From the IMG/VR virus record IMGVR_UViG_2534682078_000030: a stretch of DNA of 30,947 bases; one strand, given 5' to 3'. The first letter of the stretch is position 1, and every line of letters starts with the position of its first letter. The notes beneath the pieces are model-generated. The model searched no databases, was not told the origin of the DNA, and saw only the letters and a list, made by a program, of their open reading frames with translations. Source of the DNA: a virus. Taxonomy: Duplodnaviria > Heunggongvirae > Uroviricota > Caudoviricetes. Of this stretch, positions 1 through 20,720 are shown piece after piece. The translations under genes and the position numbers were made by a program.

Positions 1-22
1 GTATATTTATCTCATGGCTTGT

Positions 23-1000
23 TGAACCGCCCCGGGTTTCCTGGAGAGTGTTTTATCTGTGAACTCAGGCTGCCAGATCATCGTTTCCGATGGAAGCATA
101 ATAAGCTTTTTCTGCTTCTGCCGGAGGAGTATGGCCCAGCCTTCCCAGCAATCGTCGATTGTTATACCAGTCCACCCACGTTAGTGTGGCCAGTTCCACT
201 TCTGCACGGTTTTTCCAGCTCTTACGGTGTATTACCTCCGCTTTGTAAAGACCATTGATGCTCTCAGCCATCGCGTTGTCATACGAGTCGCCTGTACTCC
301 CTGTTGATGCCAGTAATCCGGCTTCTTTTAGTCGCTCCGTATAGGCCAGTGACACATACTGAGAGCCTTTATCGCTGTGATGGATGGTGCCAGACGGACG
401 ACGGGCCCACAACGCCTGCTCCAGCGCATCCAGCACGAATGTCGTTTCCATAGACGATGAGACCCGCCACCCCACGATGTATCCGGCAAACACATCAATG
501 ATAAACGCCACATAGACGAAGCCCTGCCATGTGCTGACGTAAGTAAAATCAGCCACCCACAGCTGGTCAGGTCGTTCTGCCACGAACTGACGGTTTACGC
601 GGTCGCCTGCGGCAACGGCTTTCCGGCTGATGGTCGTACGGACCTTTTTACCCCGGAGAACACCGGCAAGTCCCATAACCGCCATGTTACTGCGGCGCAG
701 TTCACGATTTTCACGTTCCAGCTCTTTCAGACGCTGACGTTCAGCGCTGGTGAGCCCACCATCACCGCCCCCGGTATCCCGCTCATGCTGGCGAACCCAG
801 ACACGCAGAGTCTCCGGCGTACAGCCAATCTTTGGGGCAATGGAACAAATTGCCGCCCACTGTGAGTCATATTCATCCTGACTTTCCAGAACCATACGAA
901 TCGCCCGCTGACGGACTTCGGGGGAAAAACGAGTATTTTTAGTCATCCTGTTTACCTCTTTCTCAGGGAGTTTAGTCTCCAGGATTTCCGGGGCGGTTCA
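23..1000 (-). mobile_element. IS3-family insertion sequence (IS629/IS1203-like), copy A, 978 bp, internally deleted
   Basis: Termini match copy B: TGAACCGCCCCGGGTTTCC from 23 (right end, reverse orientation) and GGATTTCCGGGGCGGTTCA ending at 1000 (left end). It is 332 bp shorter than the 1310-bp copy B; the junction at 685/686 joins orfA codons ...RRSN to orfB codons MAVMG. Flanking triplets TGT (20-22) and TTC (1001-1003) are not a direct repeat. Confidence 0.85.
65..946 (-). CDS. IS3-family transposase, in-frame OrfA-OrfB fusion created by the internal deletion (293 aa)
   Basis: First 86 aa are identical to OrfA of copy B ([19 protein letters not shown]...RELRRSN) and the remaining 207 aa are identical to the C-terminal part of OrfB of copy B ([14 protein letters not shown]...NDDLAA). 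The programmed-frameshift window and OrfB N-terminus are missing. Confidence 0.8.
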
Positions 1001-2412
1001 TTCAGGAGGACCGCCACGAGCTGGGCGATGACATAACTCCGCGTTTTAAGGCGGAGTATGTCGACGGCTCAAAAGGCACACCAACCAGCTACATCGCCAC
1101 CTACATCGGAAAGAACCTGGACAGCCGCGCCGTGGATGGCATCGACCCGAAAACGGGCAAGCCACGCGTTGACCACGAAACCGGAAAATCAATGGCCGAG
1201 AGCGTGGAGCGCGCCATCGGCTGGGCGCGCCTTCACCGGGTCCGTCAGTTCCAGTTCTTTGGCATCCCCTCCCGTCAGGTGTGGCGTGAACTGCGCCGCC
1301 TTGCCAGCCAGATGGCACGCAATCCGGAAGGCCCGCAACGGCTGAAAGATGATGCAATGGATGCGGTACTCGCTGCCGCCGATGCCGGGTGTTTTGCCAC
1401 CTACATTGAAAAACAGGGCGGCGTACTTGTTCCACGCAAAGACTACCTGATTCGCACCGCCTACGACCTCGCAGATGAGCTGAATGATTACGGCGAACAG
1501 AGCGTACAGATTTACGGGATCTGGTCACCACTCATCGGGGAATCCTCCCGTGTGTGCACGCATCCGGATAACTGGAAACTGGTAAGACGTAAACCGGAAA
1601 CGGAAGACAGCGCCCGCGAAAATGGTTTTGACCTTCAGGGCGGCCCTGCCGCCCCTTGGACTCGTGGCAATAACTGTCCCCGTGTACAGGAAACGGACAA
1701 CAACGGGGCAGAACAGCCGGAAGAACGGCCAGCACCGTGGCCGCAGCTCCCTGACGGCGTTGAAGTGAACGAATGGATGCGCTCACTGAAACGGCACGAA
1801 CGCCGGGCGCTGATGCGTTCGCTTCGTGACAAACAGGCAAAAAACAGCAGTGATGAAATGCAGAGCTGGACACAGAGCCGCAAACAGCAGCGGCCTTTGC
1901 CTGATAACCACGAATTACTCGCTAAAGAATGGCGGGAGTCTGCCGAATCTCTCGGCCTGCATATCGGTGAACAGCAGATGCAGCACCTGCTACGGGGCGG
2001 CAGCCTGTACGTTGACGGCAGCATCATTGCACCGCAGGGATATGAAATTGTACGCAAACCGGATACCCGCCCGGACAGCCGAATCACGCAGCTCTGGCAG
2101 CACCTGAGCCGTAATCACGGCGTAAGCAGCACGGAGATCCGCCATAACCCGGTCGCCAGCTATCTGGCACAGCTGGGGGCATCAGACCCCGAAGCCGCCG
2201 CACGCCTGGCATCCGCACTTCAGCAGGATCAGAACACCATGAAAACACCCGTTACCGTGCTTTCTGACATGCTGCGCGCCATCCGCGACGCAGAGCACGC
2301 ACAGAGAATCAGTGAAACCACTGAACGCGCCAGCCGCAAAGCAGACCTGCTGCAGGGTGGCCTGACCAGTGGAAACAAAAACAGACAGAAACGGGACTCA
2401 CGAATCCCGTAA
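1001..2412 (+). pseudogene. A: Replication initiator gpA-like (rolling-circle Rep with paired catalytic tyrosines), 5'-truncated by IS copy A
   Basis: Open frame starts at the IS boundary with no start codon (QEDRHELGDD...). It contains the Y-x3-Y motif SYIATYIGKN typical of the P2 A / phiX174 A nickase family and sits upstream of the Q-P / O-N-M-L head cluster as in P2-like phages. About 470 codons remain. Confidence 0.7.
2391..2410. repeat. 20-bp palindrome ACGGGACTCACGAATCCCGT, copy 1 of 2, overlapping the gene A stop
   Basis: Inverted arms ACGGGAYT / AATCCCGT read directly in the sequence; repeated 73 bp downstream. Confidence 0.6.
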
Positions 2413-2463
2413 ATGAGCAAAAAACGCGCAGCGATATATGAAGCGCGCACAAAACAGGCAAAA

Positions 2464-2483
2464 ACGGGATTTCAGAATCCCGT
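2464..2483. repeat. 20-bp palindrome ACGGGATTTCAGAATCCCGT, copy 2 of 2, about 35 bp upstream of parM
   Basis: Perfect 8-bp arms with a 4-bp spacer; both copies are followed by TAAA. Position is consistent with an operator or centromere-like site for the parM operon. Confidence 0.6.
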
Positions 2484-2517
2484 AAACGATTAATTAATCA
2501 ACATAAGGAAAAGCGAC

Positions 2518-3477
2518 ATGAAAATTTGTATCGACGACGGCTCCACCAACATCAAGCTGGCATGGACTGAGAACGGCGAACGCCGCAACGCCATCAGCCC
2601 GAACAGCTTCAAGTCGGAATGGTCTGCGCCGTTCGGTGGCACGCAGCCCGCGAACTACATGCTTGATGGCGTGCGCTATGGTTTTGATCCGGTCAGCGAT
2701 CGCTTTGTCCAGACGACCGACACGCAATACCAATACAGTGATGTGAATGTCATTGCCATTCATCACGCGCTGGTCAAATCAGGCATCACGCCACAGGAGG
2801 TGGATGTGGTTGTCACCCTGCCACTGAGCGAGTATTTCGACACAAACGCACAGCCGGACATAGCCAACATCAACCGCAAAAAAGCGAACGTTATGCGCCC
2901 GGTGGAGTACCAGAACGGCGAAGCATTCACTATCCGTAACGTGCGGGTTATGCCTGAATCCATTCCGGCTGGCTTTAAGGCACTGGCTGACATGAGTCCG
3001 TTTGAATCCCTGCTGATTGTGGATTTGGGCGGAACCACGCTGGATGTGGCAAAGGTTCAGGGGCAGCTGGCAGGTATCAGCCAGGTGTTTTGCGATCCAC
3101 ACGTAGGCGTTTCCCTGATGGCTGATGCCGTGCTGTCGGTGATGGCCACTAACGGTATGCGTACCAGTCACCACATCGCCAATACCATTATTGAGCACCG
3201 TCACGATGAAGCCTGGCTGCGCCAGCACATTCACAATGACGCGCATTACAACAGCCTGATGGCGGTTATTCGTGAAAAGGAGGAGACACTGAAACAACGA
3301 GTGATCCGCGCGCTGGCGGGTTTTTCCGGTTACGGGCGGGTGATGGTTGTCGGTGGAGGGGCGGAGATTGTGGCACCCGCTATCCGCGAAGCCTGCGGAG
3401 TTAATGCGACTTTCATCACGGACGGGGTGCCACATTTTGCTCTGGTTAATGGGCTGTACGCAATGAACAAGGAGTAA
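2518..3477 (+). CDS. parM: ParM/StbA-like actin-type plasmid segregation ATPase
   Basis: 319 aa; N-terminus ICIDDGSTNIKLAW...ISPNSFKSEW, then YSDVNVIAIHHAL, VMPESIPAG, LIVDLGGTTLD and VVGGGAEI align closely with my recollection of plasmid R1 ParM. SD AAGGAAAA precedes the ATG at 2518. Confidence 0.85.
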   Translation: MKICIDDGSTNIKLAWTENGERRNAISPNSFKSEWSAPFGGTQPANYMLDGVRYGFDPVSDRFVQTTDTQYQYSDVNVIAIHHALVKSGITPQEVDVVVTLPLSEYFDTNAQPDIANINRKKANVMRPVEYQNGEAFTIRNVRVMPESIPAGFKALADMSPFESLLIVDLGGTTLDVAKVQGQLAGISQVFCDPHVGVSLMADAVLSVMATNGMRTSHHIANTIIEHRHDEAWLRQHIHNDAHYNSLMAVIREKEETLKQRVIRALAGFSGYGRVMVVGGGAEIVAPAIREACGVNATFITDGVPHFALVNGLYAMNKE

Positions 3478-3481
3478 ACCA

Positions 3482-3793
3482 ATGACGACACCAACCAGAA
3501 GAATAAGTTTCTATCTGAAGCCAGCTGCCGTCAAGAACGAAGGAGAAGCATGCGCCTGGCTGGACAGCCTTACACCAGAAGCCCGCAAAAGCGGCCAACG
3601 CGTGGCTTTTCTGGCCGGGCTGGCACTTCTGAAGACGAATCCGGCAGAGGCTTACCGACTGGCCGCATGGGCTGATGATGAGATGTTACCTGTGACACAA
3701 ATCAGCTCAAAAAAGTTTGAAGCACAGTCTGCACCAGTGGCTAAGATAACCAGCCAGATGGCTGGGAATATCCGGGCGTTATTTCCTGAGTAA
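3482..3793 (+). CDS. parR: ParR/StbB-like centromere-binding adaptor
   Basis: 103 aa immediately after parM; RRISFYLKP...LDSLTPEARKSGQRVAFLAGLAL resembles the R1 ParR N-terminal ribbon-helix-helix region (RRTIAFKLNP...LDSIPQGERSRLNRAALTAGLAL). Confidence 0.7.
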   Translation: MTTPTRRISFYLKPAAVKNEGEACAWLDSLTPEARKSGQRVAFLAGLALLKTNPAEAYRLAAWADDEMLPVTQISSKKFEAQSAPVAKITSQMAGNIRALFPE

Positions 3794-3921
3794 AAGCATC
3801 TGCGCGAAAAATGCTCACATTTATAGAAACAGTATCATTCCATTTGGCGCACTTACTTCAATAATCGATCTGTTAAACAAATAGATTGTCTATTATCTAT
3901 CGATTAAAACGATCAATTATC

Positions 3922-3949
3922 TTGACAGTAATGTGCCTTTTTGTAAGAT
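3922..3949 (+). promoter_or_regulatory. Candidate sigma70 promoter TTGACA-16-TAAGAT
   Basis: Perfect -35 hexamer at 3922-3927, 16-bp spacer, -10 TAAGAT at 3944-3949, inside an AT-rich region with nested inverted repeats (TAATCGAT...ATCGATTA at 3861-3906). Sequence-only prediction. Confidence 0.4.
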
Positions 3950-4000
3950 CGTTCGCATTGTGAGCGACAAGATAATTGCGCGGCATTGTCCATGCAAAAC

Positions 4001-4026
4001 GCCCCAATAGCAGCAACTATTGGGGC
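4001..4026 (+). other. Stem-loop GCCCCAATAG-cagcaa-CTATTGGGGC (10-bp perfect stem, no U tract)
   Basis: Perfect inverted repeat read in the sequence, downstream of the candidate promoter. Confidence 0.4.
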
Positions 4027-4055
4027 GTAGAACTCGGTCGGACTCACTTAACCTG

Positions 4056-4140
4056 ATATGCGTGCCTTCCGAAGTAAATCAAAATGTGCGTCGTATATTT
4101 TATTGCTTACACGCACCTCTGTAAAGGCACGCATATTTTT
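4056..4140 (+). other. Long hairpin ATATGCGTGCCTT ... AAGGCACGCATAT with inner GTGCGT/ACGCAC stem, followed by TTTT; terminator/attenuator or structured RNA
   Basis: 13-bp arms at 4056-4068 and 4124-4136 enclose about 55 nt containing a second inverted repeat; the T run at 4137-4140 is directly before the SD and GTG start of the next ORF. Confidence 0.4.
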
Positions 4141-4157
4141 CCTATGAGGTAAATAAA

Positions 4158-4427
4158 GTGCGGGCTAAAACAGGTATTTGCAAGAACCCTCATCGTTATA
4201 ACCCAACATTTCTGTCTCTCCCTGAATATCAAGGACAAGAAGGTCGGCACAAATGCGCTGCCTGTGCTTTTGAGCTAGGCATAAAAGATGCGCTTGAAGG
4301 ACGCGCTATGGCTCAGAATGATTTAGTTTTAGCTAACATTCCGTTTAGCCAGGCTGGAACTGTAAGGCACAGAGATGCTTATGAAGCATATGTTCGTGGT
4401 TGGCGATTAATACACAGCAACAATTGA
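4158..4427 (+). CDS. Hypothetical 89-aa protein (GTG start), Cys-containing (HKCAACAFELG)
   Basis: ORF with SD GAGG 8 nt upstream of GTG and a strong intrinsic terminator directly downstream. I do not recognise a family. Confidence 0.5.
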   Translation: MRAKTGICKNPHRYNPTFLSLPEYQGQEGRHKCAACAFELGIKDALEGRAMAQNDLVLANIPFSQAGTVRHRDAYEAYVRGWRLIHSNN

Positions 4428-4435
4428 TATTTTTG

Positions 4436-4460
4436 AAGCGCCGATAAGGCGCTTTTTTTT
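4436..4460 (+). terminator. Rho-independent terminator AAGCGCC-gataa-GGCGCTT followed by T8
   Basis: GC-rich 7-bp stem and a run of 8 T, 9 bp after the stop codon at 4425-4427. Confidence 0.75.
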
Positions 4461-4989
4461 GTTTGCACGATAGTGCACAAGTTTGCACAATTTTTTTGAA
4501 CGACTTTTTGTACTTCCGGCCCGCGTGGCGGCTGGATCCGTCAAGGATCCGTACGTGCACAAAAAACGCGTTTTTTCTACGCGCAGGTGACGGGGGAACA
4601 GCCCGCGTTTCAGGGGGGTAAACAGCATTCCCTGAACGATGTCGCAGAGACACAACAGAATGGCCATATTTCTCACGCTGAGCATGAAAAAGGCGTGAGG
4701 GCTTTTGATTTGATGGGGTGAAAGGTAAGGCCGTCAAAATCGCACTGAGGCAGCGAGAACATACAGTCAACGCGGTGGGATTGCGTAAGAGTCTGACCGT
4801 CGATGGTGGCGATAAACTGGAAGGCGTCGTGAAATTATCTGATTGATACAGGAGCTGGAGAGCCGGGGCATAAATTTTTTATGCCCCGGCGAAGCAGCAG
4901 ACAAGCGAAGCGCGTCAGTGATGCGGCACCTTGCCGACCACACTTCATAAGTGCAAAATACGAGCAAAGAAATCAATGGAGGCTGTTTT

Positions 4990-5514
4990 ATGGTCATTAA
5001 TTACAAGCAGTTACGAGAAAAACGAGAGCAGGTAAAGGAAAGTTTTCGCCGCAATGAAGATCTGACCCCGCTTGTACACCTTGCTCAGGGAATTGTAGAT
5101 GCTTATGAAATCTCTCTGGAGCTGCCATCACAGACATGGACTGATAGCGACGGTAATCGCCAGCATTACGTTTCATGCGGACTGGAAACAACTGAAGGGT
5201 TTCGCAGAATGCCTTTATCTCAGATTCCTGCCTCTACCCCCAAAGCAAGGGGCGGCAATGATGAGCGAAAACTGATTTTCAGCATTGAGACAGTGGTTGA
5301 CGACACACCTGGCGAAGTCGCCTTCGTGCATACTCCTCTTTCGATCGCAATGTATAACGATGAAATACAGGTTCGCGTTAATAATAATATCGTGCCACTT
5401 AAAGAAGGTAATTCACCCTACACCACCGTTTGTGAAGCCATTCAATATTACGTTCTCTCTGAAATTGATAATCTCAAGCCTGACGGCACCCAGAAAATGG
5501 TTCAACTCTGGTAA
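4990..5514 (+). CDS. Hypothetical protein, about 174 aa, unknown function
   Basis: ATG at 4990 with GGAGG 7 nt upstream (the tracked ORF opens at 4951, but the start at 4990 has the SD). Terminated by a hairpin plus T run. No recognisable motif. Confidence 0.5.
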   Translation: MVINYKQLREKREQVKESFRRNEDLTPLVHLAQGIVDAYEISLELPSQTWTDSDGNRQHYVSCGLETTEGFRRMPLSQIPASTPKARGGNDERKLIFSIETVVDDTPGEVAFVHTPLSIAMYNDEIQVRVNNNIVPLKEGNSPYTTVCEAIQYYVLSEIDNLKPDGTQKMVQLW

Positions 5515-5519
5515 AAAGG

Positions 5520-5545
5520 ACAGCCCCATCACGGGGCTGTTTTTT
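5520..5545. terminator. Bidirectional intrinsic terminator ACAGCCCC-atcac-GGGGCTGT flanked by A5 and T6
   Basis: 8-bp GC-rich stem with a U tract on either strand; lies between the convergent 174-aa ORF and Q. The Q stop codon (5529-5531) is in the loop. Confidence 0.7.
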
Positions 5546-6575
5546 CATCAAGAAGAGCATAAGAATTAAAACGGATCACCTCTTCGCCAAGCCAGTCATT
5601 GATGTGCTTCATGGCCTCCATAACGGGCATCAGCTCGTTAATTGCATAAACCCGCGCGGCCTTCTCCACATCACCAAACGCACTTTTTTCGCCCGGCATC
5701 GCCCCCATCAGTTGCGGCGGAACACGGTGCGCAGCCAGCACATCATCACGGGATGCCGCCTTAACATTCATGAACTCATCTTTTGCGGTGATCTGCTGGA
5801 ACGGCAAAATTTGCACCCCCTCTTTGCCCCCGTTGGGCGCATGAATGAGCACGTTTTTAAATGCACCACTACCACGTGCACCCTGTAATGTTTCTTTCAG
5901 GGAGTCCATGCTTTCGCGGTTTACCTGCGCTGCACCGATGTAGATGATGCACCCGGCGTGGGATCCGTTGTCGTAATACAGTTTTCTGAACATGTCCGCC
6001 GAATGAGACAGGCTGGCCGAGAGTAATGCGCCGAGATATTCCGGCATGCCGTAGATTTCCTGGTTAATATCCGGATTCATCAGGTGGCACACTTTGCCAG
6101 GGCGAAACTGAAACGCGTCCTTGCCATCCTGCACATACCACCATGATTCAAGATCGCTTCCGCGTCGCATGTATTTCGCCAGTGCGTGCCGTAATTTAAG
6201 CGGTTCGCCGAGCATATTGCTTCGAAGCTCAAGGTATGCGTTACCGAACACAAACCAGTCCAGCGCCAGCGCCGAGAAATCCTGCCGGGAAAGCAGCGGG
6301 TGCGGAATATAGCAGCCGAGCAATACATTGCGCTTAAAGTAAAGCGCAGACTGATGCCAGGACGTTTGCCGGGCGGCTCTTGCCAGACCGTACCAGTCCA
6401 CCGGGGTTTCATACCACCGCCCGTTATCAGCACAGTACATATTGTCCAGCAAATCATGCCCGGTCAGGCGATAAGGACCATCAAAAGTGAATGCACTGAG
6501 CGACGATTCTTTCCTGAGCGCATCAGCGAGATCAATGCGTGAACTCATGCGCACTTTTTTATTTTTTCTGCTCAT
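5529..6575 (-). CDS. Q: Portal protein (P2 gpQ family)
   Basis: 348 aa, immediately downstream of and overlapping the terminase large subunit on the same strand, as in P2; length and position fit gpQ. Confidence 0.8.
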   Translation of the reverse strand: MSRKNKKVRMSSRIDLADALRKESSLSAFTFDGPYRLTGHDLLDNMYCADNGRWYETPVDWYGLARAARQTSWHQSALYFKRNVLLGCYIPHPLLSRQDFSALALDWFVFGNAYLELRSNMLGEPLKLRHALAKYMRRGSDLESWWYVQDGKDAFQFRPGKVCHLMNPDINQEIYGMPEYLGALLSASLSHSADMFRKLYYDNGSHAGCIIYIGAAQVNRESMDSLKETLQGARGSGAFKNVLIHAPNGGKEGVQILPFQQITAKDEFMNVKAASRDDVLAAHRVPPQLMGAMPGEKSAFGDVEKAARVYAINELMPVMEAMKHINDWLGEEVIRFNSYALLDEKTAP

Positions 6576-8326
6576 CAGAACTCCATAACCGTGAAACGCT
6601 CGTTTTCTCCTTCGCCGCCAATTGGTTCGTTAATGACAGCAAGCATGGTTGCCCACGCAAGGTCGCCGTGGCTGATCCCCCTCGCGCGGTCCGTTTCGTA
6701 AGTGATAAAACCGCCCGGTGTTTTCACCTTACGCACGGCGTTAAAGGCCGCGACCAGCTCGCGTTCGGCGCGATCGTATTCCCACCGCCCGGCACGCATT
6801 ATTTGCAGCATTTTCAGTACCAGCGACCGTTTTGATGACAGCGTGAAGGTGTACGGAATAGCAGCAGGGAAAAACCGTTTCACTATCTGATAAACAGCCT
6901 CCCCGTTCCCGCCCGTCACATCAATGCCGATGTGTTCCACGTTGTAGCGACACGTGAACTCTTCAATGACTCTGGCCTGTTCTTCAAACTCCAGCCCCTG
7001 AACGCGTCGCGTCTCCACCGTTCGAAAACGGCCACCAGGAACAGCCGGAGGAACCACCACAGACACAGCGCCGCTGTCGCCGTTGCCACTGCTGCCGTTT
7101 GCGTCATACCCAATCCATACCGGACGATTCCCCATCGGGCGGGGAGCAAAAGGTTTCCAGTCTTTCCAGTCGTCGTATCCGTCAACACCGCAGCCAATCA
7201 GGATATTCAGGTTAAATGCCGATTCCCCTTCGCGGACAAACTCACACATATAGAGATTGAGGAACTCGTCTTCGGTGTTTTCATCACGAATTTCGTCGAT
7301 ATCGGTGTGTTTCCAGCCGTGATTAACCACATCTTCCAGCGTGACAATTTGCCGCCACGTCCGGTCAGGGCAGATAAGCCCGTTATGCAGCGTATTCCAG
7401 TCCACAGAAAAACGCCGGCGTTTATGCGTGGCCTTTTTCTCGTTCCAGCGGTCGCCGTTCCAGTAGGCGTATGCTTCGTGCGTTTCGGTGGATGGCGTGG
7501 AGAAGTAGGTGCGCCGCAGTCCGCTGAGGGTTGCCATAGCGCCAGCCACCTTGCGCAGTTCAGCAAAGCGACTGACCCAGAAAAATTCATCAAAATAAAA
7601 ATTGCCCGTATAGGACTGCGCCGACGCAGCAGAAGTGCCGAGAAAATGCAGCTCTGCGCCATTGGAGAGGATGATTTTATCGCCCCCTTTCAGCTCCACA
7701 TCAACTTCAGCCGCAGCCTTCTGAATAATGCTTTTAAACTGGAACGCCTGACGACGCGACGCAGACAAAAAAATCTGGTTACGCTGGTAAGGTTGCGCCA
7801 CATCGTCACGCAGCGCCATCAGCAGAGCTTCCTGTGCAAAATACCAGGTCGCCCCAATCTGTCGGGATTTCAGGATCATCCTGTTACGTATCCCGGCTTC
7901 CCTGCAAAGGGTCAGGGAGTCAAACCAGCCCCGCTGATGCCACTCCAGCCTGCTGATGATTTTTTCCCGCAGTGCGGAAATCTGTTCCGGCGTGAAATGA
8001 TTTTTGAGTTTTTTCGCCCGGCCTTTCTTTCCTGCGGCCATCACATCCGGATGGCCATCATGCAGCTTTTTAAGCTGCCGGGTCAGCAGGTCTATTTCCT
8101 TAAAGTCACCGCCTGTTTTATTCTGTTTTTCAGTAAGCTGGATGAGGCGCGCATCGATGGACTGCGTGACACGCTGCACGGGTGGCGTTTCATCCCACTG
8201 GTCGCGTTTTTTCCACGCATAAATCGTGTTCGGGTTTATTCCCATCAGACGTGATATTTCTGCGGGCGGATAACCCTGCCAGTAAAGTTGCCGCGCACGC
8301 TGGCGCACAAAAGCGTCCTGAATCAT
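6575..8326 (-). CDS. P: Terminase large subunit (P2 gpP family)
   Basis: 583 aa; divergent from the O-N-M-L operon across a 120-bp intergenic region, as in P2. Confidence 0.85.
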   Translation of the reverse strand: MIQDAFVRQRARQLYWQGYPPAEISRLMGINPNTIYAWKKRDQWDETPPVQRVTQSIDARLIQLTEKQNKTGGDFKEIDLLTRQLKKLHDGHPDVMAAGKKGRAKKLKNHFTPEQISALREKIISRLEWHQRGWFDSLTLCREAGIRNRMILKSRQIGATWYFAQEALLMALRDDVAQPYQRNQIFLSASRRQAFQFKSIIQKAAAEVDVELKGGDKIILSNGAELHFLGTSAASAQSYTGNFYFDEFFWVSRFAELRKVAGAMATLSGLRRTYFSTPSTETHEAYAYWNGDRWNEKKATHKRRRFSVDWNTLHNGLICPDRTWRQIVTLEDVVNHGWKHTDIDEIRDENTEDEFLNLYMCEFVREGESAFNLNILIGCGVDGYDDWKDWKPFAPRPMGNRPVWIGYDANGSSGNGDSGAVSVVVPPAVPGGRFRTVETRRVQGLEFEEQARVIEEFTCRYNVEHIGIDVTGGNGEAVYQIVKRFFPAAIPYTFTLSSKRSLVLKMLQIMRAGRWEYDRAERELVAAFNAVRKVKTPGGFITYETDRARGISHGDLAWATMLAVINEPIGGEGENERFTVMEF

Positions 8327-8480
8327 TGCTCCCCCTGAGTAATTACAGGAAGATTACCCGCGCGCGAAACCGTTCTCCTTAACCCCCTGTTCTGGCCGTT
8401 TTCTTACAACAAAAGCCCTTTGTATCAGCCTGTTACGCTTTGCCATCATGACTGAAGAACCAGTCAGAGGGGCAAAAACT

Positions 8481-9317
8481 ATGGCTAATGAAAAAAAGAC
8501 ATCCCGCAAAAAGTTTCGCGTGGCTGTCTCCGGATCAACTGTTGATGGCCGTGAAATCAGTCCGGTGCATCTGCGTGAAGCCGCCGAGAACTTCAACCCG
8601 GATGTTTACGCTGCCCGCGTGAACGTTGAGCACTATCTCTCGCCATGCCCGTCAAGCGAATTTTCCGCAATGGGCGATGTCACCGCACTGAGTACGGAAG
8701 ACATTACGGAAGGTCCGCTGGCCGGACGTACTGCGCTGTATGCAGAAATCGAACCGACCGAGCGCATGAAGCAGCTTGTCGCGGACGGCAAGAAAATCTA
8801 TTCCAGTATCGAACTGCACCCGCAGTTCTCCGTTAACGGGCGTGCCTATCTGGTCGGGCTGGCGATGACCGACACCCCGGCAAGCCTGGGCACTGAGCGC
8901 CTGAAATTCACGGCACAGCAACGTCAGGCGGTAATGACGTTCAACAGTGTCCAGGGTGAAGCGCCGCTTATCTCCGAAGCCATCGAGTCTGAAATCATCG
9001 AAATGGCAGAACAACGCCAGGAAGAAGGCACCCAGTGGTTTAACCGCGTAATGGGGATTATTGGCCGTGGCCGCAAAGCGGATGACGCCAGTTTTTCCCG
9101 TATTCAGGAAGCGGTGGAAGGCGTCGCAACGTCACAGGCCGACATTATCGACCGTTTTAATGTGCTGGAAACCCGCCATCAGCAGGACCGCCAGAAAATT
9201 ACGTCACTGACCACAGAGCTGACAGCACTGAAGGAAAAACTGCGCACGCAGGACGGCGATCCGCAGAACCGGTTCACCGCAACGGGCGCAGCCTCCGACC
9301 AGCTGGCTGACTTCTGA
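8481..9317 (+). CDS. O: Capsid scaffolding protein (P2 gpO family)
   Basis: FRVAVSGSTVDGREISPVHLREAAENFNPDVYAARVNVEHY matches the conserved gpO N-terminus. ATG at 8481 is preceded by GAGGGG; the tracked ORF starts at 8448 without an SD. Confidence 0.85.
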   Translation: MANEKKTSRKKFRVAVSGSTVDGREISPVHLREAAENFNPDVYAARVNVEHYLSPCPSSEFSAMGDVTALSTEDITEGPLAGRTALYAEIEPTERMKQLVADGKKIYSSIELHPQFSVNGRAYLVGLAMTDTPASLGTERLKFTAQQRQAVMTFNSVQGEAPLISEAIESEIIEMAEQRQEEGTQWFNRVMGIIGRGRKADDASFSRIQEAVEGVATSQADIIDRFNVLETRHQQDRQKITSLTTELTALKEKLRTQDGDPQNRFTATGAASDQLADF

Positions 9318-9340
9318 TAAGACAAAGGAGCAAATTTTTT

Positions 9341-10393
9341 ATGAATCTGGTGATGTCAGATATTACCCGCAACAAGCTGGGTTGCTATATGGCGCAGCAG
9401 GCGTCGCTTAATAATATCCCGGTTTCTGCGCTGGTATCGCGATTTACCGTAGAACCCTCGGTGCAGCAGCGTTTTGAAAACGCCTCAAAGGAAAGCACCG
9501 AATTTACAAAAAGAATTAACGTGATCGGCGTGACCGACCAGAAAGGCGAAAAAATCCTCCTGGATACCACAGGACCGATTGCGCGCACGAATACCAGTTA
9601 TGACGGCACAAAACGCCGTAACCCGAATAACGTGGTTGATCTGAAAAACCGCAAATACCAGTGCGAACAGGTGAACTACGACACGTTTATTTCATATCCG
9701 CAGCTTGATGCCTGGGCGGCACATCCTGATTTTCAGTCCCGCATCAGCGCACAGATTGCCCGACAGGTGGCGCTTGACCGCATCATGATCGGTTTCAACG
9801 GCACGTCTCACGCGGATGAGTCCAACTTCAGCACCAACAAGCTGCTTCAGGACGTTAACGTGGGCTGGCTGGAGCACATCAGAACCGACGCCAGCGAACG
9901 CGTTATGAATGACGTGACGCTGACCTCCCGCAACATGGACAACACCGTGGCGCACGCGGGTAAGTATGCGAACGCTGATGCACTGGTACAGGACGCACGC
10001 TCATCCCTGCTGGATGAATGGCACAAGGAAGCTGACGACCTCGTGGTGATTATGGGGCGCAACCTGTTTAACTCGCTGCGTCTGCCCGTGCTGAACAGCA
10101 TCAGCGGCCAGAATCCCAATGCGGAATTACTTGCCGGGCAGCTCATCCTGTCATCGCGCACCATTGGCGGGCTGGGCGTGTTCCTTGCGCCGTTCTTCCC
10201 GGATGCAACGATGCTTATCACCTCGTTCAACAACCTGTCGATTTACTGGCAGAAAGGTTCAATGCGTCGCCTGATGAAAGACGAACCGGAATACAACCGC
10301 ATCGCCACCTACCAGTCCATCAATGACGCTTATGTCGTTGAAGACTATGGCAAGTGCGCGATGGTCACTGGCCTGAAGTTCGCCGACAGCTAA
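9341..10393 (+). CDS. N: Major capsid protein (P2 gpN family)
   Basis: 350 aa; motifs FTVEPSV, MLQDVNVGWL, YFPDAMLIT, DYVVEDY align with P2 gpN. SD AAGGAG precedes the ATG. Confidence 0.9.
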   Translation: MNLVMSDITRNKLGCYMAQQASLNNIPVSALVSRFTVEPSVQQRFENASKESTEFTKRINVIGVTDQKGEKILLDTTGPIARTNTSYDGTKRRNPNNVVDLKNRKYQCEQVNYDTFISYPQLDAWAAHPDFQSRISAQIARQVALDRIMIGFNGTSHADESNFSTNKLLQDVNVGWLEHIRTDASERVMNDVTLTSRNMDNTVAHAGKYANADALVQDARSSLLDEWHKEADDLVVIMGRNLFNSLRLPVLNSISGQNPNAELLAGQLILSSRTIGGLGVFLAPFFPDATMLITSFNNLSIYWQKGSMRRLMKDEPEYNRIATYQSINDAYVVEDYGKCAMVTGLKFADS

Positions 10394-10438
10394 TCAACTC
10401 ACGGCGGGCATCATGCCCGCCTGTAACGGAGAGAAAAA

Positions 10439-11239
10439 ATGATTACTCCTGCACAGCAACACTGGCAGAACGTGATGGCACAGCGCGCAGGCCGGGCGAA
10501 TGAAGGCGTGGACCACGCCGCGCGTACCGCGCATGAAGAGGTGCTGTATCGTCTGCGTCTGGCACAGGCCCGCCTTAAGGGCGTACAGGCCAGAAGCGCG
10601 AAAGCCGCCATCAAAAAAGAGTTATTGCCGGACTTTTCCGGCTGGATTGAGGGAACGCTGGAGGCTGACGGCGGGCAGCAGGATGAAGTGATTGCCACGC
10701 TGATGGTGTGGGCGATTGACTGCGGCGATCTTCCGCTGGCGCTGCGTATTGGTGCGTATGTGGTCCGTCATAACCTCATTATGCCGGATAACTTTGGCCG
10801 TACTGCTGCCACGGTACTGACCGAAGAAATCTGCAACCCGGTACTGACGCAGGCCGGGACGGATGCCGACGCGGATTTATCCGCCTTTATCGAACCACTG
10901 GATACCCTCCGGGAGATTGTCACCGACCAGGACATGCCGGACGAAGTGCGCGCCAAATTATGCAAGGCGTGCGCCTTTGCCCGTCGTGGTCTGACCGATG
11001 CAGACAACATGGCCTTATCACTGAAGCTGCTGCGCGAAGCGATGCACCTGAACCCGAACGCAGGTGTGAAACGCGAGATTGCAACCCTTTCCCGCGCCCT
11101 GAAAAAAGCCGATTCCGCAGCCGAACCAGAAGACGCCAGCGCACAGCAGGCGCAGGACGAAAGCAGCAAAAGTAAAAAGACAACGCGGAAGCCTGCAACA
11201 CGAAAAACCACCGCGACGCAGAAGGCGAAGCGCGGTTAA
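10439..11239 (+). CDS. M: Terminase small subunit (P2 gpM family)
   Basis: 266 aa; DMPDEVRAKL and NAGVKREI motifs and a basic Lys/Arg-rich C-terminus as in gpM. Confidence 0.85.
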   Translation: MITPAQQHWQNVMAQRAGRANEGVDHAARTAHEEVLYRLRLAQARLKGVQARSAKAAIKKELLPDFSGWIEGTLEADGGQQDEVIATLMVWAIDCGDLPLALRIGAYVVRHNLIMPDNFGRTAATVLTEEICNPVLTQAGTDADADLSAFIEPLDTLREIVTDQDMPDEVRAKLCKACAFARRGLTDADNMALSLKLLREAMHLNPNAGVKREIATLSRALKKADSAAEPEDASAQQAQDESSKSKKTTRKPATRKTTATQKAKRG

Positions 11240-11255
11240 CGACTGACCCCGTCAG

Positions 11256-11327
11256 CGGGCGGCGTGCGCGGTGTTCCGGTTTGACTCCGTGACCGTTTAC
11301 ACCGCGCACCCACCGCCCGATTTTTTT
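11256..11327 (+). terminator. Long imperfect hairpin followed by T7 between M and L; candidate intrinsic terminator/attenuator
   Basis: CGGGCGGCGTGCGCGGTG (11256-11273) pairs with CACCGCGCACCCACCGCCCG (11300-11319); T run at 11321-11327. Confidence 0.45.
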
Positions 11328-11341
11328 CAGGAGTGAACCCC

Positions 11342-11836
11342 ATGAGTATGGTTGCCAGAACTGAACCCAGACCCGCAGAGGACGACATCACCGATACCGA
11401 TGATGGCGATACCCGCATTTCAGCGGGTGCATTCTGGCCGGATATTGTGCTGCGCGAGCTGCGTCTGGCGGTACGACTGCCGGGCCGCGTGACCACCTCC
11501 CGCCTGCTGCATACTGCCACCGGGGCTGTGGCACACGTTACCCGCGAGCTGGAAGCATGGCAGCAGGAACAGCAGGCAGCTGGCCATCAGACGCTGGCCG
11601 ATGTTCCGGCCCCTGTAATTAACGGAGAAAGCGTCAATCTCTGGCACTGGCGCAATGCGGTTTATACCGCCACGCGCGCCCTGATTCTGGAGCGTTATCG
11701 TGATGCAGACACAACGGACAAGGGCGACCGCCGGGCGGACGCTCTGGATATACAGACATCGGATTTGTGGCGTGATGTGAGCTGGGCCATCTCTGACATT
11801 CTGTGCCGCCCGCGAATCTTTGCGGAGTTGTGCTGA
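11342..11836 (+). CDS. L: Head completion/stabilisation protein (P2 gpL family)
   Basis: Position after M; ATG at 11342 with SD CAGGAG (the tracked ORF begins at a GTG at 11333). Confidence 0.75.
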   Translation: MSMVARTEPRPAEDDITDTDDGDTRISAGAFWPDIVLRELRLAVRLPGRVTTSRLLHTATGAVAHVTRELEAWQQEQQAAGHQTLADVPAPVINGESVNLWHWRNAVYTATRALILERYRDADTTDKGDRRADALDIQTSDLWRDVSWAISDILCRPRIFAELC

Positions 11837-12036
11837 TGAAAGTGAAGGCACTGGAAGGCGACACCGTGGATTCGCTCTGTTTCCGGTACTACGGCACGAC
11901 GCAGGGCGTCACCGAAAAGGTGCTGGATGCCAACCCCGGACTCTGTCAGCAGGTATTTCTGGACGCCGGGCAGGAAGTTGAGATGCCGGAGCCGGAGAAG
12001 AAGAAACGAGAAATGATTCAGTTGTGGGGGGAGTAG
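11836..12036 (+). CDS. X: Tail protein X (P2 gpX family)
   Basis: 66 aa, MKVKALEGDTVDSLCFRYYG...; the ATG overlaps the L stop (TGATG). Confidence 0.75.
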   Translation: MKVKALEGDTVDSLCFRYYGTTQGVTEKVLDANPGLCQQVFLDAGQEVEMPEPEKKKREMIQLWGE

Positions 12037-12038
12037 CA

Positions 12039-12362
12039 GTGAGCACCATTCAAACAGGGATCACAGAGCAGGTTATTGCGTGGCTCTTTGACCACCTGCC
12101 AACGGTGTATGCAGTAGGCGCGGCGGTCAGCATTTCCGCGCTGATGAGTCTTTATGACGGACGAACACTGGTTCAGACCGTAACGGGATCGCTGGCGTGC
12201 GGCGTTCTTGCCATGGCCGTGGCCGGGTCGTTGCGCTTCTTCGGGTTTCCTGAAGATGCCGTGACGTTTATCGGCGCATCAATCGGTTTTATGGGTGCAG
12301 AGAAAGCACGCGACAAGGTTATTGCGGCCTTTAATCGCAGGGTGAAGGAGAAGGACGAATGA
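12039..12362 (+). CDS. Holin (P2 gpY-like)
   Basis: About 107 aa with three hydrophobic segments and a charged C-terminus; GTG at 12039 preceded by GGGGGAG. Start uncertain (the tracked ORF begins at 12024). Confidence 0.65.
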   Translation: MSTIQTGITEQVIAWLFDHLPTVYAVGAAVSISALMSLYDGRTLVQTVTGSLACGVLAMAVAGSLRFFGFPEDAVTFIGASIGFMGAEKARDKVIAAFNRRVKEKDE

Positions 12363-12751
12363 GCAACACATTTAAATTCAGCAGCCGGAGCGAAAAGAAT
12401 TTGCAGGGCGTAAATCCTGATCTGGTGAAAGTGACCCGACGGGCACTGGAAATCTCGGAAGTGGATTTTGGTATCACCGAAGGGTTGCGCAGCCGTTACC
12501 GCCAGAAGCAACTGGTGGCCACGGGTAAGAGCCAGACCATGAACAGCCGCCACCTTACGGGGCATGCCGTGGATGTTGTGGCTTATATCGGCAGCCAGGT
12601 GTCATGGGAATGGCCGCTGTACGAAAAAATCGCAGCAGCATTCAGACAGGCCAGCCGGGAACTGAATATTCCGGTGGAATGGGGCGGCGACTGGAAGACC
12701 CTGAAAGACGGACCGCATTTTCAGTTACCACACGGAGCCTATCCGGCATGA
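12359..12751 (+). CDS. Endolysin, peptidase M15-like (not a P2 K-type lysozyme)
   Basis: 130 aa with SRHLTGHAVD, the SxHxxGxAxD zinc-binding signature of VanY/M15 peptidases. Confidence 0.7.
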   Translation: MSNTFKFSSRSEKNLQGVNPDLVKVTRRALEISEVDFGITEGLRSRYRQKQLVATGKSQTMNSRHLTGHAVDVVAYIGSQVSWEWPLYEKIAAAFRQASRELNIPVEWGGDWKTLKDGPHFQLPHGAYPA

Positions 12752-13155
12752 AGCTCTGGCCCACGCTTGGCGTCGCTTTCCTTCTGATTGCCGGATGGGG
12801 AACATCCATGCGTCTGTCTTGGTCGCTGGGCCGGGAGAACGCCAGAAACGAAGCACAGGCCAGCACCCTGAAAAGTACCGCCGACACCCTGAATATCATC
12901 AGCGCCGGGGGACAGGATATGCAGCAGGTGCTGGCGCAACTCCGCGTGGAAAATCAGCAACGCAATCAGGACGGAGAGGTAAGACGTGAACAGCTACGCA
13001 ACGATATTGCAAAAGATGAATGCGCCCACGCTTTGCCTGACGCTCGTTTTACTGACAGGCTGCGCAGGCACGCAGAACGCGCCACTGCCAGCGCCGTCAG
13101 TCCGGCTTATACCGCAGACGCTGACCATACCGGTAACGCCTCCCCGCTTCCCTGA
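12748..13155 (+). CDS. i-spanin (Rz/LysB-like)
   Basis: ATG overlaps the endolysin stop; N-terminal membrane anchor MKLWPTLGVAFLLIAGWG followed by a coiled-coil-like charged region. Confidence 0.6.
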   Translation: MKLWPTLGVAFLLIAGWGTSMRLSWSLGRENARNEAQASTLKSTADTLNIISAGGQDMQQVLAQLRVENQQRNQDGEVRREQLRNDIAKDECAHALPDARFTDRLRRHAERATASAVSPAYTADADHTGNASPLP

Positions 13156-13306
13156 TACTCCCACATGGGGAAATCTCGGTATATGGGGCGACCGCCTTCT
13201 GGATGCACTGGAAACCTGTAACGCGGATAAACGGGCCATTGAATTACTGGAACAGCGCAGGCTGCAACGACTGAACAACGAGGATAACAACCATGCTGAA
13301 AACTGA
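12986..13306 (+). CDS. o-spanin lipoprotein (Rz1/LysC-like), overlapping the i-spanin in the +1 frame
   Basis: Lipobox LLTGC after a short hydrophobic signal and a Pro-rich mature region; starts inside the i-spanin gene and extends beyond it. Alternative start at 13016. Confidence 0.6.
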   Translation: MNSYATILQKMNAPTLCLTLVLLTGCAGTQNAPLPAPSVRLIPQTLTIPVTPPRFPDTPTWGNLGIWGDRLLDALETCNADKRAIELLEQRRLQRLNNEDNNHAEN

Positions 13307-13760
13307 TTCCCTGCGTGAAGCCATGACCCGTTCATGCCGATGGTGTCAGGCCAACCCGGAAAAATTCACCATTTTCGTGGAGAGCGGCAACATTGAAACG
13401 ACCGGAGAAACCCCATCGTTTGTTTACCGCTATCAGATGGTGATGTTTGTCATGGATTACGCCGGGGAGCTGGACGACCTCACGCTGCCGCTGCTGGCGT
13501 GGTTATCCGAAAATCAGCCACAGTTGTTGCTCAACCCTGAGCGTAATCAGGACATCAAATTCTCCGCCGTTATCAATGACGATGACAGCGCCGATCTCCT
13601 GTTTACGCTCCCCCTGCGGGAACGCGTTCGCATCACGCGCAGCAGTCAGGGGACACCGCAGGCAGAACACCTGCCGGAGCCAAAACCCCGCCTGCCATCT
13701 CCCGAAGGCGACTGGTCGCATGTATTCCAGGATGTGACGTGGGGTGAAAGCGATGGATAA
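13293..13760 (+). CDS. R: Tail completion protein (P2 gpR family)
   Basis: 155 aa, MLKTDSLREAMT...LLAWLSENQP resembles gpR. Confidence 0.8.
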   Translation: MLKTDSLREAMTRSCRWCQANPEKFTIFVESGNIETTGETPSFVYRYQMVMFVMDYAGELDDLTLPLLAWLSENQPQLLLNPERNQDIKFSAVINDDDSADLLFTLPLRERVRITRSSQGTPQAEHLPEPKPRLPSPEGDWSHVFQDVTWGESDG

Positions 13761-14388
13761 GGCATTCACCCGCGTGGATGAAACCTTTGAGGCCATCCGC
13801 GACAGCCTGAATCAGCAGGCCATCAATAACATCGCCAGAAAGCTGGCACAGGATTTACGCCGCGCCCAGCAGGCGCGTATCCGGTCACAGAAAGCGCCGG
13901 ACGGGACCGCGTGGACACCACGCAGACGCCGCGTAACCCGGATACAGGAACGCATTCGCTTTATCTGGAATAACGAAGCACGCACGCTGAAAAACTGGCA
14001 TCACGACACGGGGAAATACGGGCGAACCATTACCGGGTGGGATGAGGATAAAAACAATATCCGCACGTTTTACCGGGATGACATCGACCGTTTTCTGGAA
14101 ATACGCACCCGGCGCATCAACCAGGACAGCACAAAGCGCGTCCCCATGTTCGTAAAACTGCGCACCGCCCGCTACCTGAAAGCCCGTGCAGATGCTTCCG
14201 GTGTGACGGTGGGTTACAGCGGCGTGGCCGCACGTATTGCCCGCGTTCATCAGTTCGGTGAGCGCGATCAGGTTGCGCCGGGCATTTTCACCGATTACCC
14301 GGTACGTGAGCTGTGGGGTATCAGCCAGGCAGATGAGCGCCTGATTTATAACACGGTGCTGGGCCGGATTGCGGAGGCTGTACGGTGA
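13753..14388 (+). CDS. S: Tail completion / virion morphogenesis protein (P2 gpS family)
   Basis: Position between R and V; ATG at 13753 with SD GGGGTGA. Longer than P2 gpS. Confidence 0.65.
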   Translation: MDKAFTRVDETFEAIRDSLNQQAINNIARKLAQDLRRAQQARIRSQKAPDGTAWTPRRRRVTRIQERIRFIWNNEARTLKNWHHDTGKYGRTITGWDEDKNNIRTFYRDDIDRFLEIRTRRINQDSTKRVPMFVKLRTARYLKARADASGVTVGYSGVAARIARVHQFGERDQVAPGIFTDYPVRELWGISQADERLIYNTVLGRIAEAVR

Positions 14389-14966
14389 GCGCTGAACTCA
14401 TGCGACTGCTGAGCAACATCATCCGTACCGGGATCATCTCTGAAGTTGATGAGGAATCCTGGTGCGTGCGCGTTCGCAGCGGCGAACTGGAAACAGGCTG
14501 GCTGCGCTGGAACACCACGCGCGCGGGTGCCTTCAATGTGTGGTTGCCGCCATCACCCGGCGAACAGGTGGTAATTGCCTGCATCGGCGGCAACCCGGAA
14601 ACCGCCATGATAATTGGCAGTCTGTGGAGTGATGCCATTCCGGCACCCGGCAAAAGCCTGAAAGAAATCGTGGTCAGCGCGCCGGATGGCGCGGTGTTCC
14701 GCTACGACGCGGACGCAGGCGCACTGAGCGCCAGCGGCATGAAAACGGCCACCCTGCAGGCATCCGTCAGTGTGACGCTGGACACACCTGTCGTGGAATG
14801 CACAGACCTTCTGAGAACAGCGACGCTTGACGTCACAAAAGGAGGAAAGATGAGCGGCAATATCACGCACAGCGGCGGCAACTTCACCTCAAACGGCATT
14901 ACCGTGCATACGCATAAACACGGTGGCGTGAAAGGCGGCAGCGATTCGACAGGAGGCCCGCAGTGA
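14385..14966 (+). CDS. V: Baseplate spike protein (P2 gpV family)
   Basis: IRTGIISEVD...GEQVVIAC...HTHKHGGVKGGSDSTGGP matches the gpV pattern including the C-terminal HTHKH motif. Confidence 0.85.
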   Translation: MSAELMRLLSNIIRTGIISEVDEESWCVRVRSGELETGWLRWNTTRAGAFNVWLPPSPGEQVVIACIGGNPETAMIIGSLWSDAIPAPGKSLKEIVVSAPDGAVFRYDADAGALSASGMKTATLQASVSVTLDTPVVECTDLLRTATLDVTKGGKMSGNITHSGGNFTSNGITVHTHKHGGVKGGSDSTGGPQ

Positions 14967-15313
14967 CAACCCGCTACACAGGAATGAATCCGGACGGGAC
15001 GGGAAACCTGAACGATATGGAGCACCTGAAACAGTCAGTCAGGGATATCCTGACCACCCCGCTGGCAAGCCGGGTTATGCGACGGGAATATGGCAGCCTT
15101 GTGCCTGATTTGATTGACGAACCCATGAATAACACCACGCGTCTGCAATGCATGAGTGCTGCCGTGATTGCGCTGACACGATGGGAACCCCGCATTGCCC
15201 TGGATGCCATCGACGTTGTCTGGAAAGCGGGAGGCCGCGCCGGGGTGACGCTGTCGGGCACTGTCATGCAGACCATGCAGAATGTTGAGTTAACCATCAC
15301 GCTGAGGGAGTAA
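14963..15313 (+). CDS. W: Baseplate wedge protein (P2 gpW family)
   Basis: 116 aa, overlaps the V stop; position and size fit gpW. Confidence 0.85.
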   Translation: MTTRYTGMNPDGTGNLNDMEHLKQSVRDILTTPLASRVMRREYGSLVPDLIDEPMNNTTRLQCMSAAVIALTRWEPRIALDAIDVVWKAGGRAGVTLSGTVMQTMQNVELTITLRE

Positions 15314-15316
15314 ATC

Positions 15317-16213
15317 ATGCCCGCCGTTGACCTTTCCCAGTTACCGGAACCCGCCATCATCGCGGAGCCTGACTTTGAGGCAATTCTGGCTGACACAAAG
15401 GCCATGATGATTGCGGCTTATCCCGCCGAACAGCGTGAAGCCGTCTCCGCCGCGCTGGAGCTGGAATCGGAACCCCTGAACGTTATCGCCCAGACAACAG
15501 CGTTTCGTGAAATGCTGTTACGCCAGCGGGTCAATGAGGGGGCACGCGCCTGCATGTTAAGCCACAGCGCCGGGACAGACCTGGACAACCTCGCGGGCAA
15601 TATGAACACAAAGCGCCTGACCATCACTCCGGCAACGGATACCACCGACGCAGTGATGGAAAGTGACACCTCGCTGAGACTGCGGGCGCAGCGGGCGTAC
15701 GATGGCCTGAGTGTTGCTGGCCCGTCAGGTGCATACGAGTATTTTGCCCGCAGCGCCAGCGGTCTGGTGCGTGATGCGCGGGCTATCAGTCCGTCTCCGG
15801 CAAATGTGACGGTTTCCATCCTGTCCACTGAAGGCGACGGCACAGCAACGGAGGCGTTGCTTAATACCGTTCGCGCCGTTCTGAATGCAGAGGATACCCG
15901 CCCGGTGGCCGACCGCCTTACTGTACAGAGCGCCAGAATCGTGACATGGCGGCTGAATGCAAAACTGTACTTTTACCCCGGCCCGGAATCCGAACCTATT
16001 CTGGCGGCGGCTGAATCGTCGTTCAGGAAGTGGCTGGCTGAGCAGGGGCTTATCGGTCAGGACGTGGCGTTGTCCGCCATTGCTGCCGCACTGCATGTGC
16101 ACGGTGTGCAACGCGTGGAGATAATCGAACCCACACAGAATATGGCCATCAGCGACATACAGGCGGCGCGCTGTGAGTCGTTCACCATCAGCGAAGGTGG
16201 GCGCAATGAGTAA
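15317..16213 (+). CDS. J: Baseplate assembly protein (P2 gpJ family)
   Basis: 298 aa between W and I. Confidence 0.85.
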   Translation: MPAVDLSQLPEPAIIAEPDFEAILADTKAMMIAAYPAEQREAVSAALELESEPLNVIAQTTAFREMLLRQRVNEGARACMLSHSAGTDLDNLAGNMNTKRLTITPATDTTDAVMESDTSLRLRAQRAYDGLSVAGPSGAYEYFARSASGLVRDARAISPSPANVTVSILSTEGDGTATEALLNTVRAVLNAEDTRPVADRLTVQSARIVTWRLNAKLYFYPGPESEPILAAAESSFRKWLAEQGLIGQDVALSAIAAALHVHGVQRVEIIEPTQNMAISDIQAARCESFTISEGGRNE

Positions 16214-16736
16214 TTCACTGTTACCACCATCAGCCAGCAGTTTCATGCGTTGTGCCGAAGCTGTCGGAACGCGCATTACAGACATCCCGGTAGACCTCAA
16301 CACGCTGTGGTCGCCGGACACCTGCCCGGTGCACCTGCTGCCTTATCTCGCCTGGGCATTTTCCGTTGACCGCTGGGATCGCAACTGGCCGGAAGAGACA
16401 AAACGACAGGTGATTCGTGATGCATGGCTGATACACCGACACAAAGGGACCATCAGCGCACTGCGCAGGGCCATTGAGCCGCTGGGATACCTCATTCGCG
16501 TGTCTGAGTGGTGGGAGTTCGGCGGAGAACCGGGAACATTTACCGTTGAAGTCGGCACACTGGACAGTGGCGTGACGGAGGAAATGTATCTGGAAATGGA
16601 GCGGTTGATTGCTGATGCCCGTCCGGTCAGCCGCCACATGACAGGGCTGAATATCATTCAGGAAATTCCGGGGGATATTTTTGCAGCGGCGGCAACTTAT
16701 GACGGTGAAGTTATTACCATTTATCCGGACGATTAA
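16206..16736 (+). CDS. I: Baseplate protein (P2 gpI family)
   Basis: ATG at 16206 overlaps the J stop; about 176 aa. Confidence 0.8.
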
Positions 16737-16738
16737 GC

Positions 16739-19447: not shown

Positions 19448-19490
19448 AGAGAAAAAGCCATCGATTGAAATATAGATGGCTTTATGTACT

Positions 19491-20063: not shown

Positions 20064-20114
20064 GATAATCTCCTTAATTATTATTTCAGACCACACATAT
20101 TATAAGGTTAAGAG

Positions 20115-20143
20115 ATTATAAAATCCTGTTGTTTGTTATTCAA
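20115..20143 (-). promoter_or_regulatory. Candidate sigma70 promoter TTGAAT-17-TATAAT for the acetyltransferase
   Basis: On the minus strand: -35 TTGAAT (20143-20138), 17-bp spacer, perfect -10 TATAAT (20120-20115), about 50 bp upstream of the start codon. Confidence 0.5.
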
Positions 20144-20714: not shown

Positions 20715-20720
20715 GACTCC

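Follow-up and report, generated by a model that had tools for sequence, protein, structure and literature searches.

Three described systems are the closest to the locus reported here. One is phage P88 with the other members of Xuanwuvirus (Peduoviridae). Another is the replication protein A (gpA) of phage P2, a rolling-circle initiator of the HUH endonuclease superfamily; according to PMC3986222, which cites Odegrip and Haggard-Ljungquist (2001), the two tyrosines of motif C belong to its active site and the P2 origin (ori) is situated within gene A. The third is the IS629/IEE system of enterohaemorrhagic Escherichia coli (EHEC): IS629/IS1203-associated deletions and IEE-promoted excision are attributed to Kusumoto et al. 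(2011) in PMC9943667, which also reports that IEE is found in O111:H8.

The DNA analysed here (the window) is a stretch of 30,947 nucleotides from IMG/VR record IMGVR_UViG_2534682078_000030. It is 99.99% identical to E. coli E2863, in the O111 EHEC lineage, and it contains a P88-like Xuanwuvirus prophage (Peduoviridae), which in the O111 relatives examined occupies a site between btuC and ihfA. A tblastn search with 43 P88 proteins gave collinear matches, most of them with 92–100% identity, and the segment A'-ParM-ParR is 96% identical to P88 in DNA, so both synteny and identity place the prophage in Xuanwuvirus. We read positions 1001–2412 (A') as the non-functional 3' remnant of a P2 gpA-type initiator gene in this defective prophage of O111 strains, codons 1–466 having been removed by an IS-adjacent deletion from the IRL end of an IS629 copy; we give this reading a probability of about 85%. 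The features involved are listed here with their evidence in brackets.

1..22, plus strand: left flank, codons 2–9 (partial) of a membrane ORF (37 aa) in the early region of the phage, homologous to P88 gp07 (identical to positions 7669–7690 of record L001 and 6734–6755 of record L002, the latter from strain UTAK-12)
23..1000, minus strand: IS629/IS1203 copy 1 (IS3 family), 978 bp (25-bp terminal inverted repeats, IRR at 23–47 and IRL at 976–1000)
1001..2412, plus strand: A', a 5'-truncated replication endonuclease gene homologous to P2 gpA (translation; alignments to intact A of UTAK-12, 95JB1 and 8E and to P2 gpA)
1087..1116, plus strand: motif 3 of a rolling-circle initiator, SYIATYIGKN (alignment with the intact homologue and P2 gpA)
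about 1640..1680, plus strand: putative homologue of the P2 origin, whose nick site is inside gene A, kept in A' (alignment only)
2377, plus strand: loss of one base from an A6 run that all O111 relatives have in full (sequence comparison)

The first phage base after IS copy 1 is position 1001. A' begins there with the last two bases of codon 467 of a 946-codon gene, its first complete codon being 1003–1005. The reading frame has a TAG inside the IS (973–975) and is then open until the TAA at 2410–2412, with 470 open codons in A'. No ATG, GTG or TTG is found between 976 and 1131; the first canonical start is the GTG at 1132, which is 3' of the tyrosine pair. With no start codon between the stop at 973–975 and this GTG, A' is not a translatable gene, though a shortened product might be made from the GTG at a low level, and an earlier note on this DNA, according to which the A frame opens at the IS boundary (the IS ends at 1000) without a start codon, is confirmed. 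That note also took SYIATYIGKN for the Y-x3-Y active site. Here we agree: the catalytic pair is present, its tyrosine codons (1090–1092 and 1102–1104, equivalent to Y497 and Y501 of the intact protein) sharing alignment columns with Y450 and Y454 of P2 gpA (GYIAKYISKN). But the motif is not 20 codons into the frame, as had been stated; 28 codons precede its serine. Residues 1–42 of A' match positions 278–321 of the Pfam family Phage_GPA (PF05840; model length 321) with an E-value of 5e-10 and 39.3 bits (cut-off 31.4), and SYIATYIGKN is therefore not a chance motif. The intact 946-aa homologue at the same chromosomal site in UTAK-12 matches the whole model (1–321) with its residues 185–509, at 434.5 bits. 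A' and P2 gpA (from AF063097) share 33% identity over the retained region.

Both motif 1 (PSKYH region, aa 381) and the HUH motif (H443-W-H445) are in the lost codons 1–466 and so are missing from A'; the HUH motif ends only 22 codons before the break. Judged by its sequence, A' is a fragment of a member of the P2 gpA family and not a functional member. Relative to UTAK-12, the left flank stops at position 6755 of L002 and the right flank restarts at position 9243, inside codon 467 of A; 2,487 bp are absent, including codons 1–466 and one base of codon 467. On the left side, IS copy 1 breaks the 37-aa membrane ORF (which reads MSIFISWLV... in UTAK-12 and belongs to the early operon of the phage, where it follows the DUF4754 gene) in codon 9. 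The flanks of copy 1 are TGT and TTC, i.e. the target duplication is absent, which is a signature of deletion or recombination after insertion. At the junction, 2 bp (CA) are common to the end of the IS and the sequence of gene A; microhomology of this length is expected in about 1 of 16 cases by chance and is weak evidence. The same junction is present in 38 complete O111 genomes and is thus not an assembly artefact.

The earlier note was right that A is truncated next to the IS, upstream of the tyrosine pair. It was mistaken in describing a gene simply severed by insertion, as the break is accompanied by an IS-adjacent deletion, which measures 1.7 kb against O111 strain 8E and 2.5 kb against UTAK-12. 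Of the two fates it had proposed for the N-terminal part, a position beyond the IS or deletion, the second can be settled upon: left of the IS are codons of the membrane ORF, not of A, and neither an in-frame A N-terminus nor a matching duplication is found there. Moreover, the 5' half of this A allele is, at an identity of at least 99.9%, confined to four O111 genomes and is found in neither 11128 nor E2863 at an identity of at least 99%, which argues that it was deleted rather than relocated.

Within A', the P2 origin appears to have a counterpart: the P2 record puts the nick at 29892, and P2 reads GCCGCGCCTCGGAGTCCTGTCAATAACTGT where the window reads GCCGCCCCTTGGACTCGTGGCAATAACTGT. At the other end of A', the one-base deletion at 2377 shifts the last ∼33 codons and makes the early stop at 2410–2412, and it may be a homopolymer sequencing error. 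Besides the IS in gene FI (see below), the sole indels relative to E2863 are four one-base losses in poly-A runs (2377, 19264–19265 and 28002). They shift the frame in three places, namely the 3' end of A' (2377), gene G for tail fibre assembly (19264–19265) and gene D for the baseplate hub (28002); their uniform homopolymer context suggests sequencing error, and we do not count them as biology. Two 39-bp direct repeats (2378–2416 and 2451–2489; 82% identical), each with a short GGGA..TCCC hairpin, overlap the end of gene A just upstream of parM (2518–3477) and a ParR-like gene (3482–3793). These repeats may be the centromere (parC) of a phage ParMR partition cassette.

We searched 5426 complete E. 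coli genomes with a 2-kb query in which the left flank is joined to A'. The gene A deletion is found in 41 of them, with the IS between the flanks in 38 genomes and without it in three (110512, UTAK-8 and SD134209; near position 1195 of records L005, L006 and L007). The three IS-less junctions have lost 4–7 bases and read ...ATGGC/AGGAGG, ...ATGGCTT/CAGGAGG and ...ATGGCTT/CAGGACC; such different footprints point to independent imprecise excisions of the IS. In SF26 102-1 there is an extra leftward IS-adjacent deletion, which extends up to the integrase gene. The element at the A' junction is the 978-bp form in 31 O111 genomes and a full IS of 1310 bp in seven (both at this one locus), which indicates that the internal deletion arose in place.

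The 5' half of the A allele is found at an identity of at least 99.9% only in four O111 genomes (95NR1, 95JB1, 8B and 8E), each with an annotated replication endonuclease; at an identity of at least 99% it is found in 20 records, neither 11128 nor E2863 among them. For 95JB1 and 8E, we confirmed an intact 946-aa A at the same locus, with a 3' half essentially identical to the window. In 8E, the left flank ends in ...CATGGCTT, at a point two bases before the window's IS boundary, and is followed directly by CTCCAAGG...; 95JB1 has exactly this CTCCAAGG... boundary too, but preceded by another left sequence, which is inside int. As 8E and 95JB1 share the right boundary, and the left junction of 8E is within 2 bp of the IS boundary, it is likely that an IS formerly lay between these points. 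The common right breakpoint, with CTCCAAGGATTATTTG on its right side, and the different left partners can be seen in L012 (8E, reverse complement of 5042–5392) and L010 (95JB1, 8627–9004), and the breakpoints create chimeric ORFs of 116 and 125 aa upstream of A. Several O111 genomes (e.g. 2015C-3108, UTAK-22 and 08-4377) have a second Xuanwuvirus prophage ∼240 kb away, with an intact A whose 5' half is 99.3% identical.

The following history would account for the locus. IS629 would have been inserted into the small membrane ORF that follows the DUF4754 gene, at a site that the present left junction would still mark. One-sided IS-adjacent deletions would then have extended rightward from the IRL end; these would be transposase-dependent, probably with the involvement of IEE, and the last of them would have ended inside A, at the junction with the two shared bases (CA). 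The internal loss of 332 bp from the IS would have come later. The ancestral IS629 would have lain between the points that are now the breakpoints of 8E and 95JB1: it would have been excised in 8E, and excised along with leftward DNA in 95JB1. In the branch of 11128, E2863 and the window, the IS would have stayed, and ∼1.7 kb would have been deleted rightward from its IRL end into A. The anatomy of the locus, the lost catalytic motifs, the missing target duplication and the distribution among genomes are observed, whereas we infer the succession of events and a role of IEE; the succession is a reconstruction, none of the 5426 genomes keeping a precursor.

An alternative history, the one that survives best, starts with two IS629 copies in direct orientation, one in the small membrane ORF and one at codon 467 of A, which recombined homologously and deleted the DNA between them, leaving one hybrid IS. 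This would yield the same end product (a single IS with the non-matching flanks TGT/TTC), and these genomes do contain multiple copies of IS629, a single record giving as many as 40 or more matching pieces. However, at a coverage of at least 80%, we found no genome (0/5426) with the IS in gene A and an intact upstream part of A, and none (0/5426) with the IS in the small membrane ORF and intact downstream sequence; the boundaries shared by 8E and 95JB1 point instead to stepwise one-sided deletions from a single IS. Recombination between two copies is thus unlikely. An IS abutting the right boundary of 8E and 95JB1 (CTCCAAGG) was likewise found in none of the 5426 genomes at this coverage.

The element at A' was also compared with the other IS in the window. 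Two further features are needed here.

65..946, minus strand: 293-aa in-frame OrfA'-OrfB' fusion resulting from the internal deletion in IS copy 1 (ORF list; Pfam)
24840..26149, plus strand: IS629/IS1203 copy 2, full length, 1310 bp (orfA at 24894–25220 and orfB at 25217–26107)

The two copies had been described as inverted and 23.8 kb apart. The distance that we measured is 23,839 bp (1001..24839), and the copies are inverted, though unequal, the left one being an internally deleted element of 978 bp. Both have 25-bp imperfect inverted repeats beginning with TGAACCGCCCCGG (23–47 and 976–1000 in copy 1; 24840–24864 and 26125–26149 in copy 2). Copy 1 is without 332 bp that are present in copy 2 (25155–25485), and its two arms (23–686 and 686–1000) are 100% complementary to 25486–26149 and 24840–25154. 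Copy 2 has the orfA/orfB frameshift organization and the DDE (rve) domain of IS629, with a 108-aa ORF (HTH_Tnp_1), a 296-aa ORF (HTH_21 and rve) and an ALIL frameshift pseudoknot (25175–25291), which is found in copy 2 only. Copy 1 has lost the frameshift region, and its two ORFs run into one; the fusion protein retains HTH_Tnp_1 and the rve catalytic core, without HTH_21, and PGAP calls it an IS3 family transposase (WP_000165075.1). An in-frame OrfA-OrfB fusion in a shortened IS is mildly unusual. It is very unlikely that the 978-bp derivative is a frameshift-independent transposase or a trans-acting modulator of IS629 activity; if it were, the short IS would affect the unusually active excision and deletion history at this locus.

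Copy 2 sits in the tail sheath gene FI (minus strand; halves at 24624–24842 and 26150–27118) and has the 3-bp target duplication that copy 1 does not have (GAT, at 24837–24839 and 26150–26152). None of the 5426 complete E. coli genomes has the FI insertion, which is therefore private to the source strain. The six bases outside IRL match at five of six positions between the copies (1001–1006 and 24834–24839; CCTGAA and CCTGAT in IS orientation), and intact phages, too, have CCTGAT immediately to the right of the left breakpoint. Copying of the flank was considered as the cause of this likeness and rejected, as the similarity stops there and copy 2 has a normal duplication; the likeness may be due to chance or to a weak target preference.

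It can also be asked whether what is left of A still serves a purpose. A truncated protein could start at GTG 1132 (426 aa, C-terminal, with no catalytic motif) and be kept, together with ori and ParM/ParR, because it serves the host or acts against phages; the frame stays open over 470 codons, and ParM and ParR are intact. But the O111 copies are essentially identical recent clones, which makes the open frame uninformative on selection, the 3' end of A' is frameshifted in the window, and PADLOC gave no hits among the neighbouring genes. We regard a retained function of this kind as highly improbable.

The inversion between the two IS copies that was suggested in the earlier note is geometrically possible: the copies are inverted and share perfect homology over 664 and 314 bp, which would allow a RecA-dependent event. 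The segment 1001..24839 and the sequence beyond are collinear with E2863 and P88, and the inter-IS segment is also collinear with UTAK-12; together with the intact GAT duplication, this collinearity indicates that the window is in the un-inverted state. A chimeric 2-kb query (the left flank joined to the reverse complement of the FI side) found the two halves of an inverted junction adjacent in none of the 5426 complete genomes, and copy 2 itself is in none of them (0/5426); all that this search shows, copy 2 being in no searched genome, is that the present arrangement is the parental one. That the 5' half of A was moved elsewhere by IS629-mediated inversion or translocation, e.g. between these two copies with their long perfect homology, is hardly credible, as the window keeps the order of E2863 and P88 throughout 1001–24839 and further on, copy 2 keeps its GAT duplication inside one continuous sheath gene, the sequence left of copy 1 is the small ORF and not A, the inverted junction is in no genome searched, the 5' half is absent from 11128 and E2863 at an identity of at least 99%, and three genomes join the left flank straight to A'.

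The P2 A protein is described as acting in cis. As the initiator cannot be made here, the prophage cannot start replication at the retained putative ori; the previous conclusion that it is unable to initiate its own replication was sound, given the loss of motif 1 and HUH. The prophage is replication-dead, and the source strain is also without an intact tail sheath gene, so the prophage should not be counted as an inducible phage. A' itself is already known: in RefSeq it carries the annotation 'replication endonuclease, incomplete, missing N-terminus', next to an IS3-family transposase. It is an ordinary IS-associated pseudogene of a decaying prophage, with no new mechanism or family, and matters little beyond bookkeeping. 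The locus as a whole is a compact natural record of prophage erosion by IS629, with an insertion, one-sided deletions, an internal IS deletion and repeated imprecise excision. Such a dense record is mildly unusual, and it could act as a lineage marker within O111 EHEC.

Compared with P88 and Xuanwuvirus in general, the prophage has the same gene order and orientation: A-ParM-ParR, Q/P, O-N-M-L, the tail genes, FI-FII-E-T-U on the opposite strand, and then D. We considered whether the minus-strand block FI-FII-E-T-U is an inversion relative to P2, but UTAK-12 and P88 are arranged alike and the block is native to Xuanwuvirus. The differences from P88 are the truncated A, the IS629 in FI, and the frameshifts of D and G in poly-A runs (possible sequencing errors); in addition, the region immediately left of the window has, in the closest genomes, a truncated int and no C/cox, and the phage early promoter region is lost there as well. 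A 500-aa PIN-domain protein is encoded between D and ogr (28610–30112), and UTAK-12 has a HxsABCD radical-SAM system at this position, which marks it as a variable cargo slot; a PADLOC scan of the variable-region proteins, including the PIN-domain protein, gave no hits. A hexapeptide-repeat (serine) acetyltransferase gene (19491–20096, minus strand) is found between G and U, at a position where P88 has an invertase and alternative tail fibre genes, and Rfam IS009 matches 19214–19410 (182 bits), overlapping the end of G.

Compared with P2 gpA, the retained part aligns over its full length at 33% identity, including Y450/Y454 and the ori nick region inside the gene, but of the catalytic domain A' retains no more than the final 44 positions, and it has neither the N-terminal 466 residues nor a start codon. 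The parental A protein is also longer than P2 gpA (946 versus 761 aa), with a longer C-terminal region. Compared with the IS629/IEE system of EHEC, the locus shows the same one-sided adjacent deletion with no target duplication at an IS3-family IS629, sister strains show recurrent imprecise excision (4–7 flanking bases lost), and the serogroup carries IEE. It differs from that system in that copy 1 has also lost 332 bp internally, and in that IEE is here only a probable participant.
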